Source: Flavobacteriaceae bacterium UBA3159
GTDB taxonomy: Bacteria; Bacteroidota; Bacteroidia; Flavobacteriales; Flavobacteriaceae
Assembly: GCA_002364535.1 (NCBI GenBank)
Contig: DEYL01000054.1
Coordinates: 7,309-71,308, forward strand
Reading direction: 5' to 3'
Length of the DNA stretch: 64,000 bases
Positions 1 to 52,803 of this stretch are shown piece after piece (positions within the stretch are counted from its first letter, which is position 1; every line of letters starts with the position of its first letter). Under the pieces are notes generated by a model, which saw only the letters and a program-made list of their open reading frames with translations, made no database searches and was not told the DNA's origin. Position numbers and translations under genes: made by a program.

Positions 1-617
1 TTTTCGTTTTCCAAATAGACATAGGGCGGGATATCGAGTGAAGCAGGCAGGATATAACTGTAATCAAAACCAACATCGATGGGACCTTTGGTTGGATTTT
101 TTGAAAAATCAACAATCTCTTCCTGATAGTCAGTGACAATCCCAGGGGCTCTTCTTTTGACCTGGTCCTCTCGGTAATTGGGTTTGAGTTGCCAGTCCAA
201 TCCCAGATGCCATTTACCCACCACAGCAGTTTGATAATCATTACGTTGTAAAAGCTTGGCCACCGTTTCTTTTTGGTCGGGAATCATCAAAGGTCCATAA
301 CTCCAAAGCACTCCTTTTTTAAGCCGGGTACGCCACGCATATTCTCCTGTCAGTATACTATATCGGGTAGGGGTGCAAACAGAAGAAGTAGAATGCATGT
401 CCATAAAAGCCATTCCTTGGTGTGCCAGCTGATCTAAATGGGGTGTTTTAATTTTACTTTTGTTGTTGTAATATTTCAAATCACCATAACCCAAATCGTC
501 TGCCAAAATATAAATTATATTGGGATGATTAGGTTTTGGCTGCTCCCCGGCAGTACACCCCAAAAAAATAAAAAAATAATAAACTAAGGATACCTTTTTT
601 AAAGTCATTTTTATCAT
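1..617 (-). CDS. S1 formylglycine-dependent sulfatase, N-terminal ~205 aa (C-terminus runs off the left window edge)
   Basis: My own reverse-strand translation from the ATG at 615-617 gives MIKMTLKKVSLVYYFFIFLGCTAGEQPKPNHPNIIYILADDLGYGDLKYYNN...HSTSSVCTPTRYSILTGEY. It has a lipoprotein-type signal (FLGC), the DDLGYGD metal site and a C-T-P-T-R formylglycine motif. It is absent from the ORF track because it is truncated. Confidence 0.8.
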   Translation of the reverse strand, partial: MIKMTLKKVSLVYYFFIFLGCTAGEQPKPNHPNIIYILADDLGYGDLKYYNNKSKIKTPHLDQLAHQGMAFMDMHSTSSVCTPTRYSILTGEYAWRTRLKKGVLWSYGPLMIPDQKETVAKLLQRNDYQTAVVGKWHLGLDWQLKPNYREDQVKRRAPGIVTDYQEEIVDFSKNPTKGPIDVGFDYSYILPASLDIPPYVYLENE

Positions 618-634
618 GCTATATTTTTACAAAA

Positions 635-2116
635 CTACTTTGCGTCGGCCAAAAATTCATTGAGTGGATTTCCATTCACATCGTAGTGAACTACTGAGAT
701 ACTTCCTTTTCCCTTGGGGTCAATGGTAACTGTCATGGTCCCTCCCACAATATTTAAATACAAATGTTCGGGCCTTACATCCTCTTGATCCCAGCCTGAG
801 GCGTGATCATCACTGTTGGCACCTATTGAAAACTCAACTATACCGTAATCTTGGTGTTTGGTGACATGTTGCCAATGGCGGTCACCACAAACTATATACA
901 TATTGGGCTGAGATGCAATAAATTTTCGAATGATTTCACCCTCGTGATAGAAGCCTCTATTGGAATGGTTGTCTTTTTTCTGGCTGCGATCGGGACCAAT
1001 TATAGGAGTTGGGCTGATCAATATCTTAAATGTAGCATCTGAGGCTTGTACCGTTCGCTTAAACCAGTCCATCTGCTCTTTACCCCAAATGGTTTTATTT
1101 GGGCCGTCGGCTTGGGTATTGGGGCTTCTATAATCTCGCCCCTCAACTAACCATATCTGCAAATCTTTTCCCCAGCGGAAGGTCCTGTATGTTTTGTCTT
1201 TGATCGGCATTTCCTGACGAAAAACAGCCAAACCTTGGTCAAAGGTAAAATCCCCCATAAAAGAGGACTTAATCCCTCGATAACAATCGTTAAACCAAGC
1301 ATCGTGGTCGTCTTTTTCAAAATAACTGGTAACTTGTGTATGGAAAGATTTATTGGTCGGTAAACTAAACATTCTGTCCCAATGATAATGGGCCATGCTT
1401 TTGTTCTTCGCCAAATTATCATAGTAGAGGATGTCCCCAGCGTGAACAAAAAAATCGAGATCAAGACTTTCTAGAAATGGATATATTTTGTACCCATCGG
1501 GATGGTCTTGATCGGGGTAACCTTGACAAGTACTCGCCGCAAAAACAATCTTTCGAGAGGTATTGGTATCTGGAGGAGTTTTAAATTTTCCTTTAATTTG
1601 GGCGGAGGTTTTTCCATTTATAGGACGGGCCTCTAATAACAGTTCATAAGTTTTCCCGGGAAGTAATTTATCCAAAATAAATTTTTTGCTGTAATTGGCT
1701 TCAGGGTCCACGCCTTCCCAAGCGGTAGACTGCCAGGAGGATGTATCATTGGGCTTGAAATGAACCCTAAGCTCTCCCTTCATTCCTGGAACGGCTCCTT
1801 CGACTGTATTGATATCATAGCCTTGTGGAAAATATACCGTACCATTTTTATCTCTCCTTGTTTTTCTCAAGTGCCTTTTGTTAGTAGCGGGATCAGTGTA
1901 TAACGAGATGGGTAGGGGCGCGTCATTTACGCGCTTTTTATTTTTAGTTAATCGCGCCCAAATAATAGCTTCAGTTTGAGACACATCGCCAATCCTGATA
2001 CCTGTAGCGAAATATGGACCTTGGTCACTTTCTGACTGAGACATTAACCCCAAAGGAGTCATGATTAGTACTAACAAAAAAGTTGCGATCTGGATATAAA
2101 AGGTTTTAATGCTCAT
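635..2116 (-). CDS. PhoD-like metallophosphatase (PhoD_N plus PhoD catalytic domain), secreted
   Basis: Has a signal peptide. GIRIGDVSQTEAIIWARLT resembles the PhoD N-terminal domain. FVHAGDILYYDN, FEKDDHDAWFND and VCGDRHWQH are PhoD/metallophosphatase metal-ligand blocks. The ATGA overlaps the upstream sulfatase stop. Confidence 0.75.
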   Translation of the reverse strand: MSIKTFYIQIATFLLVLIMTPLGLMSQSESDQGPYFATGIRIGDVSQTEAIIWARLTKNKKRVNDAPLPISLYTDPATNKRHLRKTRRDKNGTVYFPQGYDINTVEGAVPGMKGELRVHFKPNDTSSWQSTAWEGVDPEANYSKKFILDKLLPGKTYELLLEARPINGKTSAQIKGKFKTPPDTNTSRKIVFAASTCQGYPDQDHPDGYKIYPFLESLDLDFFVHAGDILYYDNLAKNKSMAHYHWDRMFSLPTNKSFHTQVTSYFEKDDHDAWFNDCYRGIKSSFMGDFTFDQGLAVFRQEMPIKDKTYRTFRWGKDLQIWLVEGRDYRSPNTQADGPNKTIWGKEQMDWFKRTVQASDATFKILISPTPIIGPDRSQKKDNHSNRGFYHEGEIIRKFIASQPNMYIVCGDRHWQHVTKHQDYGIVEFSIGANSDDHASGWDQEDVRPEHLYLNIVGGTMTVTIDPKGKGSISVVHYDVNGNPLNEFLADAK

Positions 2117-3570
2117 TTCTTTTGATTTTTAATTTGCTTTGATGTTCTTTTGAAATAATCGTTGATGATATGGCTACTCCCTACTTTCCAATCTACATTT
2201 ATCTTAGGCAGATTTTTTCGCATGTCCGTTTTCAGAACATCTAATGCTTCATGATTTGCAATATTGTAGCGTTCCTCAGGGTCTTTTTGCAAATCGTACA
2301 ACTCTTCAGCACCGTTTTCATAAAAAATATAGCGGTACTGCATATTAATCATGCTGTGATTGTTTTGCCCATAGGTTGTAATAGCCACGGCCGTGGAATC
2401 TATTTGTTGATTGATAAGAGGCAGCAAACTTTTCCCTTCATTGGTTGGATTTGGCGGTAATGCTGCCAGATCTATAAGTGTAGGGTACACATCAAGAAGT
2501 TCTACGGCTTGGGGAATCGACTGCTGTACATCTATTTTTGGAGATTTAAATACCAGCGGAACACGGGTAGATTCACTCCAGATTGTTTGTTTACCAAAAG
2601 ATCCTTTTTCACCAAGTTCATAGCCATGATCGGACCAAAGTACAACAATGGTGTTATCCTTGTAGGCGCTGTTTTCTAATGCATCGAGTACCACACCAAC
2701 TTGCTGATCTACAAAAGAAACACAAGCCAAATAGGCTTGAACGATTTTGCTCCACTCTCCACTTTCAATGGCCCAGTCTGTGGTAGGCATCATCCCTTTA
2801 AAGGCAATTTGTTTTGCGATCTCGGGAAGGTCGTCCCAATCATTGGGTAGGTAAGAGGGCAATGTCAATTTGTCTGGAGGATAAAGATCAAACCATTGTT
2901 TTGGGGCATACCAGGGAACATGTGGACGAATGAATCCGACGGCCATGAAAAAGGGACGATTGTGACTTTTTTTCAATTGTTTTTCCGCCCATTGGGCATA
3001 GCTGTAATCATACATCAAGCTGTCTTGACTCGGATACACGCCCCAGTCCGTAGAAGTACCCTTCTTGTCCCACTTTATTCTTTTTTCAGGAAGGGGCCCA
3101 AAACCTTGTATCCTCCCCCCTGACTCGTCAAAAACTCCCTCCGGAGCATGATTGTGAAAAATTTTCCCAACACCGAGGGTTTTATAGCCGTGATCTTTAA
3201 AGTATTGGGGTAAAAATCGAACCGTTTTCATTGATGGATTCCCTTTTCTAAGATTCTGGTCTTTGATCTGACCGTATATGCCCGTACTAGAAGGCCTAAG
3301 TCCAGAAAGTAATGAAGCGCGCGAAGGTCCACATATGGGTGCTTGACAGTGGGCATTTGTAAACAAAATACCCTCTTGGGCAAGGCGATCAATATTTGGT
3401 GTTTTTACGTTCGGATTAGCTTTTAAAACCCCAATCCAGTCATTGAGATCATCTATACTAATCATCAATACATTGAGGGGGGGATCTTTCTCTGGTGATG
3501 AACCACAGCCAGTGATTGAAAAAAACAAAAGTACCCTAAGTGCAGTATACAATCTTATTAATGCTCTCAT
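2113..3570 (-). CDS. S1 sulfatase (Cys-type), lipoprotein
   Basis: Lipobox ITGC. Motifs seen: ISIDDLNDW, AHCQAPICGPSRASLLSG (C-x-P-x-R), WSDHGYELGEKG. Confidence 0.9.
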   Translation of the reverse strand: MRALIRLYTALRVLLFFSITGCGSSPEKDPPLNVLMISIDDLNDWIGVLKANPNVKTPNIDRLAQEGILFTNAHCQAPICGPSRASLLSGLRPSSTGIYGQIKDQNLRKGNPSMKTVRFLPQYFKDHGYKTLGVGKIFHNHAPEGVFDESGGRIQGFGPLPEKRIKWDKKGTSTDWGVYPSQDSLMYDYSYAQWAEKQLKKSHNRPFFMAVGFIRPHVPWYAPKQWFDLYPPDKLTLPSYLPNDWDDLPEIAKQIAFKGMMPTTDWAIESGEWSKIVQAYLACVSFVDQQVGVVLDALENSAYKDNTIVVLWSDHGYELGEKGSFGKQTIWSESTRVPLVFKSPKIDVQQSIPQAVELLDVYPTLIDLAALPPNPTNEGKSLLPLINQQIDSTAVAITTYGQNNHSMINMQYRYIFYENGAEELYDLQKDPEERYNIANHEALDVLKTDMRKNLPKINVDWKVGSSHIINDYFKRTSKQIKNQKK

Positions 3571-6167
3571 CTTTTTGCTGCGTTAATTATACTTTTAGGA
3601 TAGTGATCTTGTGCTGTTTTTACAACTGTTTTTCCATTGACATTTTCAGTGAGCCTATAAAATTTATCTAGCTTGCCAGTATGGGATAAAAATTTTAGCT
3701 TTCCATCCTTACGTTCAATCGATATTTTAGCAGATTTATTTGTATCCATTTGAGCACTGATTTTCCAACCCTCTATTTCAAATACGTCACTATCCTCTAT
3801 CTGAAATATTTCTTTATACTTTAAGTCATCACTAACTTGTATAATGGCTAAATAACGCATTTTATCTTGTTTTTTTTGTGTAGTTGCTTTGAAATGCCAA
3901 TGATTTTTATAGGTAAGTAAGTTGCCACGGCCGTCTTTTTTTCTCAGGAAGTTTTTGGGCGCTACTGAAAACTGATTGGTAACTTCTCTGTCCAAGGGAG
4001 TGGAGCCATAAAGGGAGACTTTTCCTCCACGGTCCTCATAGGTGGTTTCCACAGTCTGATCTTCATCGTTTATTTTAAGACCTTGATAGTTGTGAATCAA
4101 CCAACTCCAGTCAACTGGTTTGTGCGCCTCCATCTCGTCATAAACCACAATGATGTTGGGTTTCAAAAGCAGGTAATGTCTTCTAAAGTGCTTGACCCCC
4201 ATATCATTTGGAATATTGTCTTTTCTAGCCTTTGGTGACAATTCGTGTGCTTGGTATGCATGGGATGCGTCCCCTACGGCATAGATCAACTGATTTCCCT
4301 CGATGAATTTGGGAATAAAGCCATATGCCCCTGAATCATAAGGTTGTCCGTGTTGATCGACCAATATACCGTTATGTCCTTGAGTGTGTTTGTACCACGC
4401 AAGAGTATGGGGAGCACCCATCCATGGACGGTATCCAGAATTATAAAACAATCGCTTTCCTTTATACGCAATATTAAAAGTATTGTGCTCGGCATGGGTA
4501 TGGGCCAGAGGTCCCATGGGTGAACTCTTGATGGAAACCCTTAGATTATTTTCGATATTCTTTCGATTGGAATTAAAATAAGCCACTCCAACATCAGGAA
4601 AAAAAGCTGCATCACTTAGCTTTATATTTTCATCCATTGAGGGAAGCGGCATGTCATATCCTTCGGTGATCCTGAACCATGCGTAATCTTGATCATCGGA
4701 TAATACAGCCTTTTCAAGTGGTCCTCCAGTGTAATCTAAATCAACTAATGGCTCCTCCAAGGCGTCCAATTTCGAAAAAACTGCCTTTGAATATTGCAAG
4801 GCAACCGGATCACCAGTGATCCTTGCATAAGCATCTGCAAAAGCTCCGTATTCTAAATTGGGCATAGGCCACTTTTTCCCATCATTACAAAAGCCGTCAC
4901 TTGTAGCCCCAGGAGGGTAAGCATAAAAGAGCCACTTCATAAAATTACTATACCAAGGTGTTCTGAAAAAGTTTTGTCCAGTGTAGGCTCCTAATTTCAA
5001 GGGGATGTCCAACAAGGTCATAACGTTCATTCGCATGTAACCTGTTCCGTTAAACCATGCGCCATCTTCTTCAGCCATTTTGGGATGCTGCGCCAGCCAC
5101 AATTCATAGATGTAGGTCAACCACTTTTCCGCTTCAGGAATTTCGTCTATTGTGGCCAAGGACGTAAGAAACATTCTGTGAAGTATGTGTTGCCAAACAT
5201 GCATGGATGAGTTTCGGTTTTCCAAGTAATTAGTCCATTTCTTATAAAAACCATTTGCACGTGCGGCCACCTGTTCAAGAATGGCTTTTCTCTCTATTAT
5301 ATCCAATTCTTCCCAAAAAACATCTACTGCCAGTGCTAAAGATTCCATAATATAAGAGTCCCCAAAGTCATTAATTCGCGTCAGTCCCTCTGGATTCCAG
5401 CTGGTGGCCTCGCGCATCCACAAAAGTGCAGTATCAAAATATTTTTTCTCTTTCGTTAATGCATACGCTTGAGTCAATGTTTGTAATGATTTTCCAAATT
5501 CATACCCCACTTCTTTGCTGAAATTCTTCTTAATTTTATCTGTCTCTTGTTTATCTCTTCCCTCAAATTTAATTAACGCATCTCTTTCACTTGGGATTCG
5601 CTTACCGATTAAATTATTCGCCCGCTCTAAAATATGATACCGCTCTTTATAGGGCATTACTTTTATCATCAAAGCCGACCAATCATCTTTTTTTAACATG
5701 ACCCTAGGGTGGGTTTTAGGTATGGATTTAATGAGAATTTCAATCCCTGCTGGAGCAAAATCTATTGAAGAATCATTGACGGTAAATGATGCAAAATCAC
5801 TCCATTCCTTACCCGAGACCTTGTATTGCCAATACCACTCCCCCGCTGCAAGGCTTTTGTGTATATTGATCATTGAGAATGGAATCTCCTTTATCTGAAA
5901 CAATGACTCTTTAAAAAGGCTGTCTCTGGAAAGTCTAACGTCGAATTTTTGAAATTTTTTGGAAGGCCACTGCAAGCTTGGGCTGTTAAATCTTACCACC
6001 TCAGCATTGTCGGGTGACATCCACCTGCGGTACTTAGGATATACCAATTTCGGAATTTCAGATTCTACAACTGGAGTTTCCTGACAGAGCAATAAACTGC
6101 CTTTTAGAAAAAACAGAATCAATAAGGTTATGGGTAAAAAATTCTTTTTTACTGCTGACTTTTCCAT
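3567..6167 (-). CDS. DUF4962 / heparinase II/III-like protein, candidate polysaccharide lyase
   Basis: 866 aa with a signal peptide. The N-terminal region (GEWYWQYKV) resembles DUF4962. The central part looks like an alpha/alpha toroid. HTHAEHNTFNIAYKGKRLFYNSGY matches the heparinase II/III C-terminal block (HxH...D/N.G). Confidence 0.7.
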   Translation of the reverse strand: MEKSAVKKNFLPITLLILFFLKGSLLLCQETPVVESEIPKLVYPKYRRWMSPDNAEVVRFNSPSLQWPSKKFQKFDVRLSRDSLFKESLFQIKEIPFSMINIHKSLAAGEWYWQYKVSGKEWSDFASFTVNDSSIDFAPAGIEILIKSIPKTHPRVMLKKDDWSALMIKVMPYKERYHILERANNLIGKRIPSERDALIKFEGRDKQETDKIKKNFSKEVGYEFGKSLQTLTQAYALTKEKKYFDTALLWMREATSWNPEGLTRINDFGDSYIMESLALAVDVFWEELDIIERKAILEQVAARANGFYKKWTNYLENRNSSMHVWQHILHRMFLTSLATIDEIPEAEKWLTYIYELWLAQHPKMAEEDGAWFNGTGYMRMNVMTLLDIPLKLGAYTGQNFFRTPWYSNFMKWLFYAYPPGATSDGFCNDGKKWPMPNLEYGAFADAYARITGDPVALQYSKAVFSKLDALEEPLVDLDYTGGPLEKAVLSDDQDYAWFRITEGYDMPLPSMDENIKLSDAAFFPDVGVAYFNSNRKNIENNLRVSIKSSPMGPLAHTHAEHNTFNIAYKGKRLFYNSGYRPWMGAPHTLAWYKHTQGHNGILVDQHGQPYDSGAYGFIPKFIEGNQLIYAVGDASHAYQAHELSPKARKDNIPNDMGVKHFRRHYLLLKPNIIVVYDEMEAHKPVDWSWLIHNYQGLKINDEDQTVETTYEDRGGKVSLYGSTPLDREVTNQFSVAPKNFLRKKDGRGNLLTYKNHWHFKATTQKKQDKMRYLAIIQVSDDLKYKEIFQIEDSDVFEIEGWKISAQMDTNKSAKISIERKDGKLKFLSHTGKLDKFYRLTENVNGKTVVKTAQDHYPKSIINAAKR

Positions 6168-7534
6168 GTTTTGTATAAATCTTTTAACTCCGCGACTACC
6201 TCTGGCTCTCGGCGATATAAATTGTTGGATTCCCCAGGGTCGCTTTCTAAATCAAAAAGTACAAAATCCTCTGAGTAAGTATAATCACGCCTGCTGGTAT
6301 CAAAGGGATTTGAATATAATTTCCATTTCCCTTTTCGGGCTACCCAGGTTAATCCATTACGCCATTTAAACTCCCAGCAATAACCAGCTTTATGATTGGA
6401 GGGAGCATTTTTATTTAAAATTATGGGCATCAGGGATTTTCCATCCATATTAGAGGTGTCAGTGTCAAATCCGCATAGATCTATAAGTGTTGGCATCCAG
6501 TCTACATTTACACTCATTTGATCTCTGAACTGATTGGAAGGAATTTTTCCAGGCCAAGATATGGCTGCTGGCACCCGAATACCTCCTTCAAACAAACATT
6601 GTTTGGCACCGCGATAGGGGCCCGTGTATCCCCCACCGTGGTAGGCGCGGGTTTCTGTAGAGTGGCCATTGTCCGATTGAAATATAATGATGGTGTCTTC
6701 TCTGAGGCTATGGGCTTCAAGGAGCCCTATAAGCGCTCCGATTTTTTCATCTTGGGTGGTCAGAAAAGCAGCGTAAAGATCCCGTGGGTGCTTAACTTCC
6801 TTTTCTCGGTAATATTTAATCCACTTTGCATAGCCTTGGTAGGGATAGTGAGGGGTGTTCATTGAGAAGAAAATAAAAAAGGGATCCTCCGACTTGTTCT
6901 CTATGATCTGTTTTGCCTCTTGTAACATAAGATCAGGAAAATATTGACCATCTAAAAAGATTTCCTGATTGTTTCTGTATAAATCGTGACGATTAGGACC
7001 ACCTTCATAGTTGTTGTCGCCTCCCCAATAGTAAAAATGAGAGTAATTGTCTATACATCCAACCAAGTGACCAAAACTGTAATCAAATCCTTGTTGGTTG
7101 GGACGCATTTCTGGTTGAAATCCAAGGTGCCATTTACCAATCAAATAAGTATTGTAACCGTTTTCCTTAAACATTTCTGCCATGGTGAATTCAGATGGGG
7201 GAAGTCCAGATTTTCTGCTCAAGTCTTGCCCTGCATTTCCTGGAACTCCTGCCCTTTGAGGGGTTTTACCTGTCAGCAAGGAAGCCCGGGAAGGAGAGCA
7301 AACAGGAGATGCATAAAACTGGGTAAAAGTAGTCCCACTCAACATGAGTTTATCCATGTTGGGTGTCACCAAGTCTTTGGCTCCCAAAATATTTACATCC
7401 AAAGTAGCCTGGTCGTCCGTGTATATAATTATTACATTGGGCTTTTTTTTTGCGGAAACAACATTAGCGTTTAAGTAAAAAACTGCTGTGAAGCTTAAAA
7501 AAATAGTCTTTATCAATGTTAATTTATGTTCCAT
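6149..7534 (-). CDS. S1 sulfatase (Cys-type)
   Basis: Motifs seen: IIIYTDDQ, YASPVCSPSRASLLTG, GKWHLG, FQSDNGHS. Confidence 0.9.
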   Translation of the reverse strand: MEHKLTLIKTIFLSFTAVFYLNANVVSAKKKPNVIIIYTDDQATLDVNILGAKDLVTPNMDKLMLSGTTFTQFYASPVCSPSRASLLTGKTPQRAGVPGNAGQDLSRKSGLPPSEFTMAEMFKENGYNTYLIGKWHLGFQPEMRPNQQGFDYSFGHLVGCIDNYSHFYYWGGDNNYEGGPNRHDLYRNNQEIFLDGQYFPDLMLQEAKQIIENKSEDPFFIFFSMNTPHYPYQGYAKWIKYYREKEVKHPRDLYAAFLTTQDEKIGALIGLLEAHSLREDTIIIFQSDNGHSTETRAYHGGGYTGPYRGAKQCLFEGGIRVPAAISWPGKIPSNQFRDQMSVNVDWMPTLIDLCGFDTDTSNMDGKSLMPIILNKNAPSNHKAGYCWEFKWRNGLTWVARKGKWKLYSNPFDTSRRDYTYSEDFVLFDLESDPGESNNLYRREPEVVAELKDLYKTWKSQQ

Positions 7535-9351: not shown

Positions 9352-9360
9352 CGGTTTTTT

Positions 9361-10764: not shown

Positions 10765-10771
10765 ACTTATT

Positions 10772-12436: not shown

Positions 12437-12441
12437 TTGAT

Positions 12442-14810: not shown

Positions 14811-14819
14811 TGGGTGTTA

Positions 14820-17198: not shown

Positions 17199-17200
17199 TA

Positions 17201-18418: not shown

Positions 18419-18426
18419 AAAATCAT

Positions 18427-21148: not shown

Positions 21149-21190
21149 ACTGTAAAACTAAATAGTAAATTGTATAATTAAAAATATAAA

Positions 21191-21226: not shown

Positions 21227-21243
21227 AAAGAATATTAATCTAA

Positions 21244-31015: not shown

Positions 31016-31023
31016 TAACGATG

Positions 31024-32777: not shown

Positions 32778-33171
32778 TAGGGTTATTTAAATTTAGGATA
32801 TTTCTAATGTTACAAATATTTATGAAATATTTTCATCTAATATGTAATACCTCTTTCGTAATCTTCAATATGTTTATTTGTTATTCCCAAATCCCTAGAA
32901 ATTGTAATTGGGAGTGATATCGTCTTTTAAAACATCCAATTATAAATACCAACTAAATATCCATAAAATTTTTGTTGTATTTTTTTTAGTTTTTAACTAT
33001 CTCTTCTTAATGAGAGTGTCTCTAAGTATCTTCATTATCACAAAAGAAAATCACATTCCCTTCTCCAAAACTCATACCTTAACAGGAAATTTTTTAAATG
33101 AGTTTTGGCTAAACGGATTTATAATTAATTGAAATGATAAAAAGTAGTTGAATTAAGTTAATAAATGTATT

Positions 33172-34587: not shown

Positions 34588-34866
34588 ATAATAAAGCTAG
34601 TGGGCTTAGTCACTTAAAAATAAGTTGCCATTCGGTATCGTTCTGTTTGATTAATTTATTTGGATAAATTTGGAAGAGTTTTTTAATTCATCTATTGATT
34701 CTTAGCCAAATAGTTTAGAGTAGATTTTCAGTTGATATTTAGATATTAATTATTAAATTGTCTTATTAAACATTTTAAGTCTTCTCTTTAATAATAACAT
34801 TGGGAGTCAGATTTTCAAGATAAATAAGTGATCTGCTTAATTAAATAACTAACAAAATATAATAAA

Positions 34867-35535: not shown

Positions 35536-35615
35536 TCAAGATTTTAAATGACTAATTGGGCAAACTAAATAGTTTATTAAAAATTGCTTGAAGATGCCTA
35601 GTTTATGATAAATGA

Positions 35616-37106: not shown

Positions 37107-37127
37107 TTTTTTAAAACTTTTAAAAAA

Positions 37128-38579: not shown

Positions 38580-38604
38580 CTAAATAAGTAAATTTAATTA
38601 AAAA

Positions 38605-40149: not shown

Positions 40150-40191
40150 ATTTTAGTTTTTTTGAATAGGATATCGAATTTATTTTTTTGT

Positions 40192-40199
40192 TACATTTG
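40192..40199 (+). promoter_or_regulatory. Candidate -7 promoter box (TAnnTTTG) for the DUF1080-led operon
   Basis: TACATTTG lies 35 nt upstream of the preferred ATG at 40234. A TTTG at 40161-40164 is the only upstream -33-like element and sits at non-canonical spacing. Confidence 0.35.
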
Positions 40200-40214
40200 C
40201 GTGCACGCACACAA
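40198..40214. promoter_or_regulatory. 12-bp perfect palindrome TGCGTGCACGCA overlapping the shared motif GTGCACGCACACAA; candidate operator in an 84-bp divergent region
   Basis: Read directly. TGCGTGCACGCA (40198-40209) equals its own reverse complement. GTGCACGCACACAA (40201-40214) recurs with one mismatch at 45175-45188. Confidence 0.45.
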
Positions 40215-40233
40215 TCAACTAACAAATAATATT

Positions 40234-45218: not shown

Positions 45219-46601
45219 ATGGATTTAAACAGAAGGAAATTTATCAAAGATGCCTCTCTTGTTTCGGCTGGGGTAATTGCCGGGGTAAGTGGTGTTAGCG
45301 CTGCTAGCACTGCGATGAGTGCCCAGAGTTACAGAAGAATTATTGGCTCCAATGATCGTCTTAACGTTGGAATCGTTGGGTTTTCAGGTCGAGCCAAAGG
45401 TTCGCTTATTCCCGCTTTTCAACAACATACAAAACAACAAAACTGCCAGATTGTAGGTGTTTCTGACATTTGGAACAGAAGGAGAGACGTGGGAAAAGCG
45501 TTTCTGGAAAAAACAACCGGCAACAAAATCGAAACATGGAGAAATAATGAGGAAATGTATGACAAAAATCAAATTGACGCTGTCATCATTTCGACTGCTG
45601 ATTTCCAGCACGCCCTTCATACCGTTCAGGCTGCCAATGCCAAAAAAGACGTTTATGTAGAAAAGCCTTTTGCCGAAACCATGGAAGATGCCAGGTTAGG
45701 AAAGAAAGCTGCCAATGATGCGGGTATTATTCTTCAAGTAGGATCACAACGCAGAAGTGGGAAAAACTACCATGCTGCCGACAAGTATATGAAATCGGGA
45801 GCTTTTGGAGATGTGGTTATGGTCGAGATGACTTGGAACGTAAACCAACCCGGGAGATGGAGAGTATATCCCAATAAAGTAAAAGACATCAAGGAATCTG
45901 ATGTGGATTGGAAAAGATACCTAATGAACCGTCCTTACCAAAAATGGGATCCAAGAAAATACTTAGAATATCGTTTGTTCTGGCCATTATCCTCGGGTAT
46001 CCCTGGACAGTGGATGGCGCACCAGATTGATACTGTTCACTGGTTTTCAGGCCTAGAGCATCCAAGAAGTGTAGCTGCGAATGGTGGTATCTACCTTTGG
46101 AAAGATGGTCGAACCAACTTTGATACCATGACCGCGGTATTCGATTACGGTCCCTTGGATGATACTAACTCCGGATTTCAAGTGGTCTATTCTTCCCGCT
46201 TTACCAATTCTGCAGGAGGAACCAAAGAAATTTACTACTCCAATGGAGGTGAACTAAACATGAAGACCAACAAAGTAACACCCAACGGTGGACTTACAGA
46301 ACGTTATTCTAGTGGAATGAACATGAAACCCAATCAATTGAAAGAATTTTCATTGTCTGAAATCGATACTAAGGTGGTTACTTCTGCCAATACTGGAGTG
46401 GATAACATGACTTCTAATCACATGCTCAACTGGCTGGAATGCGTCCGTTCCAGAGCAAAAACCAATGCACCGGTTGAAGCTGGGTATAACCACTCAATTG
46501 CCAACATCATGACTACAGCATCTATGAGGACTGGGCTTAAAGCCACTTTCGATGAAAAAAATCAAGAAGTGTTGGCTGGTGGAAAAGTATTCAAATACTA
46601 A
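45219..46601 (+). CDS. Tat-exported Gfo/Idh/MocA-family oxidoreductase
   Basis: MDLNRRKFIKDASLVSAGVIAGVSGVSA has an RRxFxK twin-arginine signal. The Rossmann motif is VGIVGFSGRAK and YVEKPF is the family EKP block. Confidence 0.85.
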   Translation: MDLNRRKFIKDASLVSAGVIAGVSGVSAASTAMSAQSYRRIIGSNDRLNVGIVGFSGRAKGSLIPAFQQHTKQQNCQIVGVSDIWNRRRDVGKAFLEKTTGNKIETWRNNEEMYDKNQIDAVIISTADFQHALHTVQAANAKKDVYVEKPFAETMEDARLGKKAANDAGIILQVGSQRRSGKNYHAADKYMKSGAFGDVVMVEMTWNVNQPGRWRVYPNKVKDIKESDVDWKRYLMNRPYQKWDPRKYLEYRLFWPLSSGIPGQWMAHQIDTVHWFSGLEHPRSVAANGGIYLWKDGRTNFDTMTAVFDYGPLDDTNSGFQVVYSSRFTNSAGGTKEIYYSNGGELNMKTNKVTPNGGLTERYSSGMNMKPNQLKEFSLSEIDTKVVTSANTGVDNMTSNHMLNWLECVRSRAKTNAPVEAGYNHSIANIMTTASMRTGLKATFDEKNQEVLAGGKVFKY

Positions 46602-46610
46602 TACAGTACT

Positions 46611-48233
46611 ATGATTAGGGCTTTTACTTTAATAATAATCCTAAGCGTCGTAATGAATTCATGCGAAGGACAACCCAAAACTACCGAAGCGGAATATGCT
46701 TCGGTAGTTTTTGTAAACGATACAGCAAACCAAAAAGTTGACGTACAACTTAATGGTACGCTATTTACCAGTTACCATTATCAAGCTTCACTTCCCAAAC
46801 CCGTTCTTTTTCCTTTGGTTACCGCCAGTGGCAAAACACTCACAAGAGGTTTCCCTATTGACCCTCAACCGGGAGAACGTGTTGACCACCCCCATCATAT
46901 GGGTCATTGGTTTAACTATGGAGACGTTAATGGATTGGACTTCTGGAACAACTCTAATGCCATTCCAAAAGAAAAATTAGAAGACTACGGTAAGATTGTA
47001 CACAGCGAAATTGTTAAAATAAATCAAGAACAAGGCAGTCTTACTACTAAAAGTAGTTGGCAAAGTACTGCAGGTGAATCCATGCTGGATGAAACTACCG
47101 TTTTTGAATTCTCGCAAGAGGGCAATACCAGAATTATTGATAGGTACACCACACTTACCGCACTTCAAGACATTTCATTTAAAGACAATAAAGAAGGAGT
47201 TTTTGGCGTTCGTGTAACCCGTGCTATGGAATTACCCGCCAAAAAACCAGCAATTTTTGTCGATGCACAAGGCAATCCGACAGAAGTAAAGGTATTGGAC
47301 AATACTGGTGTTAACGGGAACTACCTCAGCAGTGAAGGATTGGAAGGAAATGACGTTTGGGGAACCCGGGCCGAATGGGTAAAACTCTACAGCACAATAA
47401 AGGAAGAACCCGTTTCCATCACCATCATGGACAACCCCAATAATGTGGGCTATCCCACCTATTGGCATGCCAGAGACTACGGTCTTTTTTCGGCCAACCC
47501 CTTAGGTCAAGAAGTTTTTTCAAAAGGGAAAGAAGCTCTGAATTTTTCTTTACAAAATGGAGAGTCAGTAACGTTTCATTATAGAATGTTGGTACATAAC
47601 GGATCAATTCTTGATCCAAAAGACATTAGTAAATTTTCGTTAGTTGATAATAAATATAAGACCTATTTCGACGGATCAGATCTTTCTCAATGGGTTATAA
47701 AAACTAGAAGAGGAGAGGCTGATGGTGTTATTGTAAAGGAAATTGATCTGAATGACAACATATGGTGGTCTGTTGAAGATAATCTTTTGAAAGTAAAAAA
47801 TGGCCCAGATGAAATGGGCTCAACACTGTGGACCAAGAATTCGTTCGAAAACTTTAGAGTTCGTCTTAATTTTAAATTCATCGAAGGTAATATAGACTCT
47901 GGAATTTTTATGAGAGGAAGTGACCATTTAAATCCTCAAATTCAAATAGGCGTATCAGGTTCATTAAAAAGAGATATGACTTGTTCTCCCTACATTCCAA
48001 AAAAAGGGTATCCCAAAGAAGCTACTAAAGTTAAATCACTCCTCAAAATGAACGACTGGAATAACATGGTTGCTGAAGCTATAGGTGACCGCTACAGAGT
48101 ATGGTTAAATGGGGAACAAGTGATGGATTACAGTATGGAAGATGCAAATCTTAGTGGCCCCGTTGGTATCCAGCTTCATAGCGGAAGAGAGATGGAAATC
48201 TGGTATAAATCAATCGATATTGCCAGTTTCTAA
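46611..48233 (+). CDS. Fusion protein: N-terminal DUF6807 (PmoA-like) domain plus C-terminal DUF1080 domain, lipoprotein
   Basis: Lipobox MNSC. HPHHMGHWFNYGDVNGLDFWN is the characteristic DUF6807 block. The last ~190 aa (YFDGSDLSQWV...FRVRLNFKF...DSGIFMRG...GIQLHSGREMEIWYKSIDI) follow the DUF1080 pattern seen in 40234-41628. Confidence 0.7.
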   Translation: MIRAFTLIIILSVVMNSCEGQPKTTEAEYASVVFVNDTANQKVDVQLNGTLFTSYHYQASLPKPVLFPLVTASGKTLTRGFPIDPQPGERVDHPHHMGHWFNYGDVNGLDFWNNSNAIPKEKLEDYGKIVHSEIVKINQEQGSLTTKSSWQSTAGESMLDETTVFEFSQEGNTRIIDRYTTLTALQDISFKDNKEGVFGVRVTRAMELPAKKPAIFVDAQGNPTEVKVLDNTGVNGNYLSSEGLEGNDVWGTRAEWVKLYSTIKEEPVSITIMDNPNNVGYPTYWHARDYGLFSANPLGQEVFSKGKEALNFSLQNGESVTFHYRMLVHNGSILDPKDISKFSLVDNKYKTYFDGSDLSQWVIKTRRGEADGVIVKEIDLNDNIWWSVEDNLLKVKNGPDEMGSTLWTKNSFENFRVRLNFKFIEGNIDSGIFMRGSDHLNPQIQIGVSGSLKRDMTCSPYIPKKGYPKEATKVKSLLKMNDWNNMVAEAIGDRYRVWLNGEQVMDYSMEDANLSGPVGIQLHSGREMEIWYKSIDIASF

Positions 48234-48321: not shown

Positions 48322-49644
48322 ATGTTAAATAAAAAAATTTTCGTTGGTATTTTTCTTTTCTCAGTTTTACTGAGTAACTCACAGACTACAAAAACAGAAA
48401 TCAATGAAATAGTTAAAGAGTGGGCGTCACCAACAAAATTTCCAGACCATGTTGTTTTAAGTGCAACTGAAGATCCCTCAAGATCAGTTGGAGTTAATTG
48501 GAGGACTGAAGCCAGTAATGAAATAGGTTATGTTGAGCTTGCAGTTGCTGGACCTGGACCCTACTTTAAAAAAAATAGCAAAAAATATAAAGCAGAAAGA
48601 ACTGTAGTAGATTCTGAGCAAGCATACAAAGATGGATTCAAAGCTTCATATTTTGAAGTTCAAATCGATCAATTAGCACCTAATACTCTTTATGCTTACA
48701 GAGTTGGTAATTATCATTTTAAAAGTGAATGGCATCATTTTAAAACTGCTAATAACCAGCCGACTCCAATTTCTTTTTTATATGTAGGAGATGCTCAAAA
48801 TTATATTTTAGAATTATGGTCCAGAGTAATTAGGAATGCATACAAAACAGCTCCTAATGCTGATTTTTTTATCCATGCAGGTGATTTAGTTGATGATGGT
48901 CATGAGGAGATTGATTGGAATGAATGGTTTGCGGCTGGAAGCTTTATTCATAGCGAAATACCAGCTATTGCAGTCCCAGGAAATCATGAGTATCGCTATC
49001 TTGATGGAAGTTTATTTTCACAGAATGAAGTACTTTCTGTTCAATGGAATGCTCAATTCGGTTTTCCTAAAAATGGTCCAAAAGGATTGGAAAAAACCTG
49101 TTATTATGTAGATTATCCAGATTTAAAAATAATAGCTCTTAATAGTAATATTGATATAAAACGTCAAGCTAAATGGCTGAAGGATGTTTTAAAGAGTAAT
49201 GATAAAAAATGGGTAGTAGTTACTTATCATCATCCTGTATTTTCTGCATCTACAGGTAGAGATAACTCAGAACTAAGATTACTGTGGCAGCCTATTTTTG
49301 AGGAATATAATGTTGATCTGGCCCTTCAAGGCCATGACCATACCTATGCTAGGGGTGCTATTTATGAGAAACCCATCGTCGTTAAAAATGATGTTAAGAA
49401 TCAAAACATTATAGGACCAGTATATGTAGTATCTGTTAGTGGAGGTAAAATGTACTCTGTCAATAAAACAGGTTGGGATGAATTTGGAGCAACTCAAGGT
49501 AAAACTGGAGAACGCATCCAATTATTCCAACACATTTCTATTGACGGAGACCGATTGATATATCGATCTTTTACTGCTACAGGGGAATTATTTGACCGTT
49601 TTGGAATATTAAAGCAAAATGGAAAAAACAAATACTTTGATTAA
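48322..49644 (+). CDS. Purple-acid-phosphatase-like calcineurin-fold metallophosphoesterase, secreted
   Basis: PAP N-domain block VVLSATEDPSRSVGVNWRT, followed by GDAQN, HAGDLVDDG, VPGNHEY, VTYHHP and QGHDHTY, the canonical metallophosphatase ligand series. Confidence 0.75.
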   Translation: MLNKKIFVGIFLFSVLLSNSQTTKTEINEIVKEWASPTKFPDHVVLSATEDPSRSVGVNWRTEASNEIGYVELAVAGPGPYFKKNSKKYKAERTVVDSEQAYKDGFKASYFEVQIDQLAPNTLYAYRVGNYHFKSEWHHFKTANNQPTPISFLYVGDAQNYILELWSRVIRNAYKTAPNADFFIHAGDLVDDGHEEIDWNEWFAAGSFIHSEIPAIAVPGNHEYRYLDGSLFSQNEVLSVQWNAQFGFPKNGPKGLEKTCYYVDYPDLKIIALNSNIDIKRQAKWLKDVLKSNDKKWVVVTYHHPVFSASTGRDNSELRLLWQPIFEEYNVDLALQGHDHTYARGAIYEKPIVVKNDVKNQNIIGPVYVVSVSGGKMYSVNKTGWDEFGATQGKTGERIQLFQHISIDGDRLIYRSFTATGELFDRFGILKQNGKNKYFD

Positions 49645-49689: not shown

Positions 49690-50478
49690 ATGAAAATAAA
49701 ATTAAAAAACGTTGGAAAGTGCTTTTTGAATTATACAATTTTAATTTTGGGTTTTCAGATTAATGCCCAATCAATAAAAGAACAGCCTAAAGAAATTATT
49801 TTACTAATAGGTCAATCAAATATGGCAGGGCGAGCCGAAATGATTAAGCAAGACTACCAAGTCGTTAAAAATGCTTTTCTGTTCGACAGTCTTAATCGAT
49901 GGGTTCCACTAAAAAGTCCCCTAAACATTCACTCTTCGATTAGAAAAGAGGCCAGTATACAAAGATTCAATTTGGGGCATTCTTTCGCCAAGGAAGTAAT
50001 TGCTGATGGCAACATCAACCCCCTGGGATTGGTGGTCAATGCCAAAGGGGGTACCAAAATCGATCAATGGATTCCCGGAACCCATTTCTTTAAGGAAGCC
50101 CTTAGAAGAGGCAAATCTGCAATTGGTGATCAGGGAAAGATCATTGCTACCTTTTGGCTTCAGGGAGAAGGCAATCTAGGGGATAAAGATCCAAAATTTG
50201 CCATCTACTTCAAAAAACTCAAATCTATAATTTACACTTTGAGAAAGGAGTTTAATAATGAAAAAATGATATTCATTGCCTCTGAACTAAATAAAAACCG
50301 GCCTGAAAATGAAGATTTTAAAAAAATGCTAGACAGACTCAATACCGAAATCCCCCATGGAGCATCGGTAAAGTCTGCCGGAACCTCAACATATGACGGT
50401 ACGCATTACGACCATAAAAGTCTTGAGGTTTTGGGTAAAAGGTTTGCCATTAAGTTTAAAGAATTGTATAAAAAATAA
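49690..50478 (+). CDS. SASA/DUF303-family carbohydrate O-acetylesterase-like protein
   Basis: Has a signal peptide. LIGQSNMAGRAEM matches the GQSNM(x)G nucleophile block of the sialate O-acetylesterase-like family. The ~260 aa size fits. Confidence 0.6.
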   Translation: MKIKLKNVGKCFLNYTILILGFQINAQSIKEQPKEIILLIGQSNMAGRAEMIKQDYQVVKNAFLFDSLNRWVPLKSPLNIHSSIRKEASIQRFNLGHSFAKEVIADGNINPLGLVVNAKGGTKIDQWIPGTHFFKEALRRGKSAIGDQGKIIATFWLQGEGNLGDKDPKFAIYFKKLKSIIYTLRKEFNNEKMIFIASELNKNRPENEDFKKMLDRLNTEIPHGASVKSAGTSTYDGTHYDHKSLEVLGKRFAIKFKELYKK

Positions 50479-50490
50479 AAATTAAATACA

Positions 50491-52803
50491 TTGAAATTCA
50501 AAACATTCTACTACCTATTAATTTCATTCATTGCAATGCTCTTTCTGGGCTGTGGAGAAGAAAATATTCTACCCAAAGGTTTGAGAACCGATTTGATGCG
50601 TAATTCAGATTATGTAGGACTTAATGGAAAAAAACAATCCCTTATACTCCAAAACGATGTATTGACCAAGGGGCGGTACGAAATTGCAAAAGTTCAATCT
50701 GAAAACCCACTCTTTAATTGGATTCTGGACGATAGATCTCAAAACACCATCGCATATCAGATCTTGTTAAGCAGCAATCGAGCTGGATTAAAACAAAACA
50801 AAGGCGATCACTGGGACAGTGGCAAAATATACAGCCACCAATCCTCAACCATATACAAAGGCAATCCACTTCAAAAAAACAAGGTCTATTACTGGAAAGT
50901 CCGGTATTGGGAAAATGAGGATCAAAGTTCTGGCTATTCAGAACCTCAAGCATTTGTGATCGACCCCAATGCATCGCCTGAAAAATTTTCACAAGAACCA
51001 CTGGTCGCTTCAGACGAATTTCCGGAGCTCACCAAAAAAATAGATGGAAGCTATTTTCTTGATTTTAGAAAAGCTGCTTTTGCTAAACTTAAAATCGAAT
51101 TGAATTCATCAAAGGAAGATTCAATTCTGGTAAGTGTAGGTGAGATGAAACAAAAAAACGTTTTATCGATTGATGCTCAAGCAGGAAGGAACATCAGATA
51201 CCATCAAACCCACTTAAAATTAAAACCGGGAACACACTGGTATGAAATCCCTTGGCCGGTAAACAAGAAAAGGGCCAGTAACCGTTTTATGATAAAAATG
51301 CCGGACTATATCGGAGAGGTTTACCCTTTCCGATTTGTCGAGGTTAAAGGTTATGGCGGCGATTTAAAAGCCCCTCAAGCTATCAGGACGGTGATCAATT
51401 ATACTTTTGAGGAATCTGCCTCATCTTTTATTTCAAGTGACAAAGTTTTAAACCAAGTTTGGGATTTTTGTAAATATTCTATGAAAGCTACCAGTTTCTG
51501 TGGCTATTATGTAGATGGAGACAGAGAGCGAATCCCTTATGAAGCCGATGCTTTTATCAATCAACTTTCTCACTATGCTGTAGACGCTGAGTATGGCATT
51601 GCCAGGGGCAGTATGAAGCACTTGTTATTCAATCCTACATGGCCCACCGAATGGACCCTTTATAATATTCTGATGGCCTGGTATGATTATCTCTATACCG
51701 GAGACAATCGCTTCATTGAAAAATATTATGAGGAATTAAAAATCAAAACACTGATGGACTTGTCGGATGAGACAGGTCTTATAAGCACTTTGACAGGTAA
51801 ACAAACGGAAGCCTTTTTTGAAAAATTACACAAAAATCATTGGGGAAAAAACAACAACCTAAGAGACATTGTCGACTGGCCTCAGGCGCAGCCTCCCGGT
51901 GGTTATGAGAATCTAAAGCATTTTACAGGAACAGAAAAAGAACATCCGGGAGAAAACGATGGTTATGTTTATCAAACCTACAATGCAGTGGTCAATGCCT
52001 TGTATTATGGGGCTTTGAAAATAATGGAAGAAATTGCCCTTGATCTAGATCAAAAGGAGGATCTAAGCTTATTTCAAACACGCAGTGAAAAATTCAAAAA
52101 AGCATATCTGGAAACCTTTCAGGATAAAAACAATGGTTTGATCAATGATGGGGAAGATACAGACCACAAATCTCAACACGCCAATATGTTTGCACTGACT
52201 TTTGGACTGATCCCGCAAAAGGACATAGAAAATGTAGTGACTTATGTAGCGCAAAAAAACATGTCCTGTAGCGTCTATGGATCACAAATTTTACTGGAGG
52301 GGCTTTTTGATTATGGCGGTGCGGATCATGCCATAGGCCTTATGGCCGCAAAAACAGAAAGAAGCTGGTACAACATGATCCGATATGGATCAACCATCAC
52401 CATGGAGGCATGGGACAAAAGGTATAAACCCAATTTGGATTTGAACCACGCCTGGGGCGGTGCACCTGCCAATATTATTGTCAGAAAGATGATGGGAGTA
52501 GCCCCCCTGACCACTGGAGCGCAAAAAATTAAAATACACCCCAAAATAGGCACCCTTGAATTCGCAATCCTAAAAACCAGTTTTATCACAGGAACAGTCG
52601 AGCTTGAGTGTCGTCAAACCGACAACACTTTTGCGATGAATGTCAACCTACCGGGAGGGGTTACAGGAGACCTGATGATTCCTGCTTTGAAAGGTGATAA
52701 AAAGCTGTATATCAACGGCCAAACTACGCAAAAAAAGGCTGAGAAAGGATATTTTCATCTAAAAGATTTTCCTGCCGGAAAAACATCTTTTGCGGTTAAA
52801 TAA
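50491..52803 (+). CDS. GH78-like alpha-L-rhamnosidase, lipoprotein; TTG start
   Basis: TTG at 50491 followed by MKFKTFYYLLISFIAMLFLGC. The N-domain block is YYWKVRYWENEDQSSGYSEPQAF. The catalytic six-hairpin region has YYVDGDRERIPYEADAFINQ (the D.P.RER..W.GD-type block) and MEAWD...NHAWGGAP. Confidence 0.75.
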   Translation: MKFKTFYYLLISFIAMLFLGCGEENILPKGLRTDLMRNSDYVGLNGKKQSLILQNDVLTKGRYEIAKVQSENPLFNWILDDRSQNTIAYQILLSSNRAGLKQNKGDHWDSGKIYSHQSSTIYKGNPLQKNKVYYWKVRYWENEDQSSGYSEPQAFVIDPNASPEKFSQEPLVASDEFPELTKKIDGSYFLDFRKAAFAKLKIELNSSKEDSILVSVGEMKQKNVLSIDAQAGRNIRYHQTHLKLKPGTHWYEIPWPVNKKRASNRFMIKMPDYIGEVYPFRFVEVKGYGGDLKAPQAIRTVINYTFEESASSFISSDKVLNQVWDFCKYSMKATSFCGYYVDGDRERIPYEADAFINQLSHYAVDAEYGIARGSMKHLLFNPTWPTEWTLYNILMAWYDYLYTGDNRFIEKYYEELKIKTLMDLSDETGLISTLTGKQTEAFFEKLHKNHWGKNNNLRDIVDWPQAQPPGGYENLKHFTGTEKEHPGENDGYVYQTYNAVVNALYYGALKIMEEIALDLDQKEDLSLFQTRSEKFKKAYLETFQDKNNGLINDGEDTDHKSQHANMFALTFGLIPQKDIENVVTYVAQKNMSCSVYGSQILLEGLFDYGGADHAIGLMAAKTERSWYNMIRYGSTITMEAWDKRYKPNLDLNHAWGGAPANIIVRKMMGVAPLTTGAQKIKIHPKIGTLEFAILKTSFITGTVELECRQTDNTFAMNVNLPGGVTGDLMIPALKGDKKLYINGQTTQKKAEKGYFHLKDFPAGKTSFAVK

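Follow-up and report, generated by a model that had tools for sequence, protein, structure and literature searches.

The ulvan locus of the seaweed associate Formosa agariphila KMM 3901, with the enzymatic cascade that it encodes, was reportedly described by Reisky et al. in 2019. As published, the ulvan pathway combines lyases, GH105/GH88 hydrolases, GH78, a GH39 endo-rhamnosidase, S1_7, S1_8, and S1_25 sulfatases, GH3/GH43 xylosidases, and a toroid-fold dehydratase together with GH105 (PMC8360166, PMC8511951). A second group of polysaccharide utilization loci (PULs), from marine Flavobacteriaceae of North Sea blooms, holds three to four GH92 genes, GH2/GH3/GH43_2, and up to six sulfatases, with neither lyases nor GH105 (PMC6794258). 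Here we compare with these systems a PUL found in 64,000 nucleotides (the window) of contig DEYL01000054.1 (positions 7,309 to 71,308, forward strand) from the assembly of Flavobacteriaceae bacterium UBA3159 (GCA_002364535.1). The source is an uncultured pelagic (open-ocean) member of the family, and the locus is a very large, sulfatase-packed composite PUL of at least 65 kb that lies mostly within the window. Judging from its genes, the most likely target is an ulvan-like glycan, heavily sulfated and O-acetylated, with a backbone containing uronic acid (glucuronic acid, GlcA, or iduronic acid, IdoA) substituted at O4 by (sulfated) L-rhamnose (Rha), and also bearing some alpha-mannose; we put the probability of this reading at roughly one half. 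The best reading of its origin is that some pelagic organism would produce it.

Both this locus and F. agariphila PUL H (Baumgen et al. 2021, PMC8511951; reviewed in PMC8360166) are SusC/SusD-based flavobacterial PULs rich in S1 sulfatases. They share beta-eliminating lyases (candidates here), GH105, GH78, GH39, and S1_7- and S1_8-type sulfatases (by nearest structure in our locus), and both encode an (alpha/alpha)-toroid lyase-fold enzyme near GH105 (compare P29_PDnc or P10_PLnc). To establish the gene content of the window, we listed its open reading frames (ORFs) and scanned every one of at least 150 amino acids against Pfam (Table 1). Unlike in PUL H, no PL28 or PL40 lyase was identified in the window; the PL25-type gene there is only a very distant relative, and the toroid-fold enzyme resembles PL15_2. 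A GH3/GH43 xylosidase, GH2, and a clear S1_25 sulfatase were not seen. The locus has in addition GH92, GH28, two phosphatases, an enolase-superfamily protein exported by twin-arginine translocation (Tat), and a GFO/DUF1080/DUF6807 module. The hosts also differ, being an uncultured open-ocean lineage here and a seaweed associate in the case of PUL H. Because a PL25-type propeller, a PL15_2-like lyase, a GH105 domain near structure 4CE7, GH78, GH39, and two sulfatases nearest to the ulvan sulfatase P18_S1_7 occur together, the enzyme set fits ulvan-type chemistry, and the locus reproduces most of the logic of the ulvan cascade with divergent parts.

The propeller ORF (37128–38579) has no Pfam match even at E ≤ 10 and no single-sequence match in the PDB (phmmer); its identity surfaced only through a profile of homologs and structure prediction. 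More than 130 homologs were found, and a profile of 52 of them aligns over about 250 residues with the PL25 ulvan lyase PLSV_3936 (5UAM/5UAS; E = 1.3e-11). The residues catalytic in PLSV_3936, His123, Tyr188, and Arg204 (PMC13193363), align with H103, Y157, and R172 of the ORF, all three invariant in the 52-sequence alignment. Pfam BNR_4 (PF15892) is matched by 50 of the 52 homologs and by the aligned part of PLSV_3936. A confident AlphaFold2 model of the ORF (pLDDT 85.7, pTM 0.86) predicts a seven-bladed propeller, which Foldseek aligned to 5UAM at E = 8.5e-19 with TM-scores of 0.66/0.72. The best 19 Foldseek matches consist of PL25 and PL24 ulvan lyases, the PL42 L-Rha-alpha-1,4-GlcA lyase, GH145, and one uncharacterized Bacteroides propeller; beyond them the E-value worsens by about five orders of magnitude, from about 1e-12 to 3e-07. 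All characterized members among these 19 act on Rha-(1,4)-GlcA linkages. In GH145, the same His/Tyr/Arg triad confers lyase activity and the product passes to GH105 (PMC8406133).

Even with this profile E-value and an aligned triad, the likeness to PL25 is too divergent for the ORF to be called a member of that family. An exhaustive profile search returned 1064 cluster representatives at E ≤ 1e-3, 448 at 1e-10, and 84 at 1e-30, and the subfamily, taken as the 84 representatives at E ≤ 1e-30, is a modest, uncharacterized branch. An S1_7-like sulfatase adjoins the PL25-like gene in four further contigs, with homologs of the sulfatase at 35616–37106 flanking it in the loci L027, L029, and L030, and more distant PL25-like orthologs occur together with GH2 and GH10 in other sulfatase neighborhoods. 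The 64%-identical ortholog in L027 (positions 1–19582 of ENA ERZ28548087, a 1.9-Mb contig) lies in a cluster that is rich in sulfatases but differs from that of the window and also contains a carboxylesterase, a split GH2, and a GH10 xylanase-family gene; two neighboring sulfatase fragments there, of 270 and 279 amino acids, look like one frameshifted gene.

The second lyase candidate (3567–6167) has the DUF4962 plus Hepar_II_III_C architecture of the PL15_2 exolytic heparinases. It matches BIexoHep (6LJA) at E = 2.7e-101 over residues 72–858 (full-length), and in the alignment it retains counterparts of all three catalytic residues of BIexoHep, His337, Tyr390, and His555 (PMC7904915). The equivalent of Asn336 is Met and the locus context lacks glycosaminoglycan enzymes, two differences from BIexoHep, and the substrate presumably differs as well, being another 4-linked uronate. 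Assignment to PL40 was considered and set aside: the PDB matches did not include the PL40 structure 9VTK (cited in PMC12915356), though it is possibly absent from the PDB copy searched, while PL15_2 matched at 1e-101.

The nearest structure to the GH105 domain is 4CE7, the Nonlabens ulvan-specific unsaturated 3S-rhamnoglycuronyl hydrolase (E = 8.9e-58). The DUF1961 part of the same protein matches YesU (1OQ1, E = 2.8e-40), a protein of unknown function from the Bacillus subtilis rhamnogalacturonan locus, and the GH105-DUF1961 fusion is kept in syntenic relatives.

A motif scan found 12 S1 sulfatases with an intact C-x-(P/A)-x-R motif in the window, 11 of them complete (Pfam Sulfatase E between 1e-39 and 1e-60) and one cut by the edge; the total is 13 if one past the left window edge is included. 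The resulting density, about 226 sulfatases per Mbp in the locus against the 13 per Mbp that is the highest genus average among NS5 marine flavobacteria (PMC9122927), excludes a chance cluster. For two sulfatases (2113–3570 and 35616–37106) the nearest structure is 6HHM, which is the F. agariphila ulvan sulfatase P18_S1_7 (PMC9096561). The S1_8-like sulfatase carries a C-terminal extension of about 200 residues with a weak HEAT_2 match (4.8e-06, just under the gathering score), which is unusual for a sulfatase.

From this gene content and these homologies we infer each step of a degradation route, as well as its substrate. The SusD/SusC pairs would bind and import fragments of the glycan. The PL25-type propeller would cleave Rha-(1,4)-uronate bonds by beta-elimination through its conserved His/Tyr/Arg triad, the PL15_2-like enzyme would trim the oligosaccharides exolytically, and GH105 would remove the 4,5-unsaturated uronate left by the lyases. 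A dozen exo- and endo-sulfatases (S1_7-, S1_8-, S1_4-, S1_11-, S1_15-, S1_16-, S1_19-, and S1_20-like) and three esterases would strip sulfate and acetyl groups, opening the way for GH78 to act on rhamnose, for GH39, and for GH92 to act on mannose; GH28 perhaps takes galacturonate-type residues. For hydrolase-resistant bonds, the Tat-exported GFO/IDH/MocA oxidoreductase with the DUF1080/DUF6807 proteins may provide an oxidative (3-keto) route.

Several observations weigh against an ulvan-like target. The propeller shares its predicted fold, the BNR_4 family, and a triad on invariant residues with PLSV_3936, GH145 (BT3686 and others), and PL42 (FoRham1), but it is only about 16% identical to PL25, without a single-sequence match, three of the four ligands of the PL25 Zn site (His208, His264, Cys266, His278) are not kept (the exception is His208, as H176), and its own subfamily is uncharacterized; it may belong to another family with another substrate. 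The sulfatase subfamilies given here are approximated from the nearest PDB structure in two concatenated-query PDB searches, which report the best window partner for each structure and are not SulfAtlas assignments. In the same kind of search the S1_25 structure 6HR5 was matched only partially, leaving no clear S1_25 rhamnose-3-sulfatase, and across the window and the 9 kb left of it Pfam found no GH3/GH43 beta-xylosidase for Xyl-Rha3S units, which leaves the coverage of canonical Ulva ulvan incomplete. The known ulvan pathway includes neither GH92 and GH28 nor the phosphatases and the oxidoreductase module, and GH78 lies outside the strictly conserved core described below. To our knowledge, the PL15_2 members characterized so far are heparinases. 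Ulva itself is absent from the open ocean, and we found no pelagic ulvan-like glycan documented in the searchable literature.

To see how the locus is conserved, we searched metagenome contigs and species-representative genomes. Proteins 100% identical to the PL15_2-like lyase and the PhoD-like phosphatase are encoded on long contigs from several marine metagenomes, among them a Tara Oceans scaffold and contigs of 193 kb (ENA) and 219 kb (JGI). The scan of species-representative genomes gave 18 loci, all in uncultured Flavobacteriaceae/Bacteroidota metagenome-assembled genomes (MAGs) and single-cell genomes. The string GH92, GFO, three sulfatases, GH105, sulfatase, lyase, sulfatase, PhoD is strictly syntenic in at least 12 species-level genomes at 60–94% amino-acid identity. 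To the left of this core, GH28 and GH78 were not detected in more distant relatives, where (L009–L023) a different sulfatase and then SusC follow.

The layout differs in the close relative L031 (80–95% identity). There, the trio of the PL25-like gene and its flanking sulfatases immediately precedes SusC1-SusD1 on the same strand, the right arm is adjacent, and the 9.6-kb block 26090–35654 (SusD2, SusC2, GH39, a sulfatase, and the GDSL esterase) is absent. Downstream of the single SusD, positions 18251–18454 of L031 hold remnants, about 200 bp in all, with similarity to SusC2 (5' end) and SusD2 (3' end). Because L031 differs in layout and lacks the block, we read the region as a core PUL, itself conserved, with accessory blocks that vary. 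The missing block and its remnants indicate that tandem susC/susD pairs have been gained, lost, or rearranged. GC content is 0.31–0.36 across 21000–38000 and about 0.40 in the flanking PUL arms; we dropped the idea that low GC marks a horizontal insertion of the block, since the low-GC zone (21–38 kb) is wider than the block.

A composite region of this kind raises the alternative that independent PULs lie side by side, each with its own glycan and no single substrate between them. Such an island might comprise a GH92-GH105-PL15 PUL for sulfated alpha-mannan/uronate, a mini-PUL of GH39 and a separate SusC/SusD pair, and a rhamnose/galacturonate PUL (GH28-GH78 with the third SusC). The three SusC genes, the divergent directions of the operons, the block missing from L031 apart from its remnants, the GH2 and GH10 contexts of distant PL25-like orthologs, and the failure to detect GH28 and GH78 to the left of the core in more distant relatives all speak for such an island. 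Yet in L031 the PL25-like trio, SusC1/SusD1, and the start of the core form one co-directional string with the right arm next to it, and the lyases, GH105, GH78, and the S1_7/S1_8-like sulfatases, scattered as they are over all sub-blocks, make one coherent pathway. Tandem susC/susD pairs are, moreover, common inside one PUL. We regard side-by-side PULs as rather unlikely, though as the most probable of the rivals.

The strict conservation of GH92, in a core that leaves out GH78, also agrees with a different proposal, in which that core (GH92, GH105, the PL15_2-like enzyme, and five sulfatases) targets the sulfated glucuronomannan of diatoms or brown algae, an alternating or GlcA-decorated alpha-mannan, and the rhamnose enzymes are accessory. 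Diatom glucuronomannan is the substrate proposed for sulfatase-rich GH92 PULs of flavobacteria that accompany blooms (PMC6794258), and a lyase, an unsaturated-uronyl hydrolase, and an alpha-mannosidase could in principle together process a 4-linked GlcA-Man backbone. The North Sea loci resemble ours in coming from marine Flavobacteriaceae and in combining GH92 with multiple sulfatases and SusC/SusD; against their gene sets given above, however, this locus has a single GH92 and none of GH2/GH3/GH43_2, and it carries two lyase candidates, GH105, GH78, and, within the window, 12 sulfatases. The mannan of Phaeodactylum is alpha-1,3-linked and bears GlcA as side groups (PMC6794258), which would offer the lyases no 4-substituted uronate. 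Since, in addition, the characterized structural relatives of the propeller all act on Rha-GlcA and the nearest GH105 structure is the rhamnose-3-sulfate-specific one, we think a glucuronomannan target improbable. A glycosaminoglycan-like (heparin- or heparan-type) sulfated polymer of animal origin is very improbable: the PL15_2-like lyase with its exo-heparinase relatives, the S1_7-like (iduronate-2-sulfatase family) and S1_11-like (GlcNAc-6-sulfatase family) sulfatases, and the inclusion of alpha-L-iduronidases in GH39 would suit it, but we found no PL8, PL12, PL13, or PL21 endolyase and no hexosaminidase, the uronyl hydrolase groups with GH105 structures, glycosaminoglycan breakdown involves none of GH78, GH92, GH28, or a PL25-type propeller, the GH39 protein is far nearer in the PDB to beta-xylosidases (about 3e-28) than to alpha-L-iduronidase (9e-13), and the hosts are free-living open-ocean bacteria.

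An ulvan-like glycan remains our preferred reading. An earlier note on this DNA, made by eye without database searches, had held that the enzyme mix fits no single known substrate and that no canonical ulvan lyase type is present. Both statements now look overstated, the first because most of the published ulvan cascade is reproduced, the second because a distant PL25-type candidate with its triad kept had gone unseen. Its proposal of a sulfated rhamnose/uronate/mannose heteropolysaccharide has been strengthened, the sugar composition being plausible, and the refuting case that it named, a syntenic locus already assigned biochemically, was not found: the close relatives are all uncultured MAGs or single-amplified genomes, and literature searches, which included the NS5 group and papers on bloom metagenomes, returned no description of this locus or of a characterized syntenic counterpart.

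The left window edge cuts the locus. A 100%-identical metagenome contig (L025) extends it leftward with the remainder of the cut sulfatase, another sulfatase, GH28, a second GH78, and a third SusC, all identified by a Pfam scan. On the right, the end near 52803 is confirmed by DUF2911, MscS, and cytochrome c biogenesis genes as the next genes; one of the latter (55948–59091, minus strand) encodes a 1047-residue ResB/CcsA-type fused protein, followed by a DUF6174 protein, with no relation to the PUL. Read along the minus strand from 30868 to 1, the order is SusC2, SusD2, SusC1, SusD1, beta-lactamase-fold hydrolase, sulfatase, enolase-superfamily protein, GH92, and GFO, then three sulfatases, GH105-DUF1961, sulfatase, DUF4962/Hepar_II_III_C lyase, sulfatase, PhoD-like phosphatase, and the N-terminal piece of a sulfatase. 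From 31152 to 52803, GH39, a sulfatase, and the GDSL esterase (plus strand) are followed by the minus-strand trio of sulfatase, Pfam-silent ORF, and sulfatase (35616–40149), and then by the plus-strand right arm, with the double-DUF1080 protein, two sulfatases, GFO, DUF6807-DUF1080, the purple-acid-phosphatase-like protein, the SASA esterase, and GH78.

The adjacent susC/susD genes that are the hallmark of a PUL occur as two pairs in the window, with the third SusC past its left edge. N-termini were read for all locus proteins, and every one except the GFO protein at 13782–14810 bears a signal peptide, a lipoprotein signal, or a twin-arginine motif, which places the chemistry at the cell surface or in the periplasm. 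No PUL regulator domain (HTCS, SusR, ECF sigma/anti-sigma, and similar) was found by Pfam in the scanned ORFs, and the intergenic gaps are too short for one; a regulator may lie beyond the window. Searches for tRNA genes and Rfam families in the window were empty.

Table 1. Genes of the PUL within the window, with positions counted from the first nucleotide of the window. E-values are from Pfam unless another source is named; sulfatase entries give the active-site motif and the best-matching PDB structures.
Position	Strand	Feature	Evidence
3–617	-	S1 sulfatase, N-terminal 205 aa (CTPTR), edge-cut	Full gene about 499–502 aa on L025; nearest S1_15: 9BAU, 9BAS, 7P26
635–2116	-	PhoD-like phosphatase, signal peptide; last conserved gene of core operon	PhoD 2.4e-22; syntenic in relatives, 67–97% identity
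2113–3570	-	S1 sulfatase (CGPSR), lipoprotein, S1_7-like	6e-50; 6HHM
3567–6167	-	PL15_2-like polysaccharide lyase, exolytic-type candidate	DUF4962 1e-91, Hepar_II_III_C 3e-14
6149–7534	-	S1 sulfatase (CSPSR), S1_19-like	4.4e-57; 6BIA, 9HH3
7519–9351	-	GH105 unsaturated uronyl hydrolase fused to DUF1961 (YesU-like)	GH88/105 7.7e-72, DUF1961 7.6e-53
9361–10764	-	S1 sulfatase (CAPAR), S1_20-like	5.6e-60; 7ANA, 7AN1
10772–12436	-	S1 sulfatase (CGPSR), lipoprotein	5.3e-44; 9KOQ, 6PT4
12442–13785	-	S1 sulfatase (CTPSR), lipoprotein, S1_19-like	4.4e-47; 9HH3, 6BIA, 6B0K
13782–14810	-	GFO/IDH/MocA oxidoreductase without export signal	Pfam; NCBIfam best inositol 2-dehydrogenase 2.9e-37, under curated cut-off
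14820–17198	-	GH92 exo-alpha-mannosidase-family protein	GH92 3.2e-144, GH92N 8.2e-61; 81–95% identity in core operon of relatives
17201–18418	-	Tat-exported enolase-superfamily (MR/MLE) protein	MR_MLE_C 5.3e-12; twin-arginine TRRKFIK
18427–19842	-	S1 sulfatase (CSPTR), S1_16-like	4.3e-40; 9FO1 (S1_16)
19949–21148	-	Beta-lactamase-fold serine hydrolase, likely esterase	1.7e-48; NCBIfam best AcmB methyl acetate hydrolase 9e-33, under cut-off
21244–23124, 23143–26190	-	SusD1 glycan-binding lipoprotein, SusC1 TonB-dependent transporter	Pfam
26325–27773, 27785–30868	-	SusD2, SusC2, second transporter pair, in variable 9.6-kb block	Pfam
31152–32777	+	GH39 glycoside hydrolase, variable block	GH39 2e-47
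33172–34587	+	S1 sulfatase (CAPSR), S1_16/S1_19-like, variable block	4.4e-53; 9FO1, 6B0K
34867–35535	+	GDSL-type esterase lipoprotein, variable block	Lipase_GDSL_2 1.1e-08, 36.2 bits (cut-off 32.9)
35616–37106	-	S1 sulfatase (CGASR), lipoprotein, S1_7-like, beside PL25-like gene	1.3e-45; 6HHM, next iduronate-2-sulfatase
37128–38579	-	Seven-bladed beta-propeller, distant PL25-type (BNR_4 family) lyase candidate; 483 aa, signal peptide	Profile and model
38605–40149	-	S1 sulfatase (CVPSR), lipoprotein, S1_11-like (hexose-6-sulfatase type)	3.4e-51; 7LHA, 7SNJ, 5G2V
40162–41628	+	Two DUF1080 ("3-keto-disaccharide hydrolase") domains	6e-82, two stretches
41618–43174	+	S1 sulfatase (CFPSR), S1_4-like	1.2e-57; 7ALL, 1HDH
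43171–45090	+	S1 sulfatase (CAPAR), S1_8-like	3.5e-39; 9BB9, 9BBD, 9BBA (named S1_8A-C)
45219–46601	+	Tat-exported GFO/IDH/MocA oxidoreductase, glycoside 3-dehydrogenase-like	Pfam; NRRKFIK motif
46611–48233	+	DUF6807 + DUF1080 lipoprotein	1.8e-77, 1.2e-27
48322–49644	+	Purple-acid-phosphatase-like metallophosphoesterase	Metallophos 5.6e-20, Pur_ac_phosph_N 1.6e-15
49690–50478	+	SASA-type carbohydrate acetylesterase	SASA 2.3e-42
50491–52803	+	GH78-type alpha-L-rhamnosidase lipoprotein, right end of locus	Bac_rhamnosid6H 1.6e-40, Ig_Rha78A_N 5.2e-18

Nearly all the gene calls made by eye in the earlier note were borne out by Pfam. These include the two SusC/SusD pairs (21244–26190 and 26325–30868), the DUF4962/heparinase-type lyase, GH105, GH92, GH39, and GH78, the two or three esterases (three esterase-type proteins: GDSL, SASA, and beta-lactamase-fold), the two metallophosphoesterases (one PhoD-like, one purple-acid-phosphatase-like), and the redox/enolase-type proteins (two GFO and one enolase-superfamily protein). 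Its count of 13 sulfatases with intact motifs comes down to 12 in the window, the edge-cut one among them. The span it gave, a 53-kb PUL at 1–52803, stands at the right end, where housekeeping genes follow, and fails at the left, where L025 carries on; that the region is a PUL is upheld, with the correction that it is a composite in which a 9.6-kb block with its own SusC/SusD is absent from a close relative.

Among the remaining glycosidases, the GH78 protein at the right end is a divergent yet clear match to the PDB alpha-rhamnosidase 6I60 (9.5e-30). We had taken 6I60 for an F. agariphila ulvan rhamnosidase and dropped this, believing it to be another enzyme, so that GH78 carries no ulvan link from 6I60.

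The Tat-exported GFO protein, together with three DUF1080 domains and one DUF6807 domain, resembles the oxidative 3-keto-glycoside system of the BT2156-2160/BT2158 type, but it does not reach the score of the curated family: its best NCBIfam match is BT_2158_fam at 3.3e-27, with 95 bits against a cut-off of 750. The true start of the double-DUF1080 ORF is probably the ATG at about 40234.

In the Tat-exported enolase-superfamily protein, the RRxF motif, K189-x-K191, D219, E249/D250, D274, and H298 are invariant in 30 homologs (44–100% identity). Foldseek gave only generic MR/MLE matches for it, without functional discrimination. Enzymes of this superfamily abstract protons alpha to carboxylates; in a PUL that probably targets uronate, a periplasmic member could serve as an epimerase or dehydratase at uronate C5.

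Two exported phosphatase-type proteins are encoded in the PUL, of which the PhoD-like one closes the core operon and is strictly conserved there. Their presence may be a sign that the glycan carries phosphate esters or diesters, or else of coupled phosphorus scavenging.

The sulfated glycans of the open ocean are mostly without known structure or degradation pathway. If our reading is right, this locus encodes, in a pelagic clade, chemistry hitherto tied to the coastal seaweed polymer ulvan. A bolder extension, which we offer tentatively and consider possible at less than even odds, is that the propeller founds a new lyase (sub)family, widespread in marine Bacteroidota, Planctomycetota, and Verrucomicrobiota, and that the PUL marks an unrecognized pelagic sulfated rhamnoglucuronan (a "planktonic ulvan") from phytoplankton or cyanobacteria that would be a regular carbon source in the surface ocean. 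Already on the main reading, if it holds, an uncharacterized branch would be added to the PL25/GH145/PL42 propeller superfamily, and the PL25-type propeller, the PL15_2-like lyase, GH105, and the S1_7-like sulfatases would serve as enzyme probes for a rhamnose-uronate sulfated glycan in plankton-derived organic matter.

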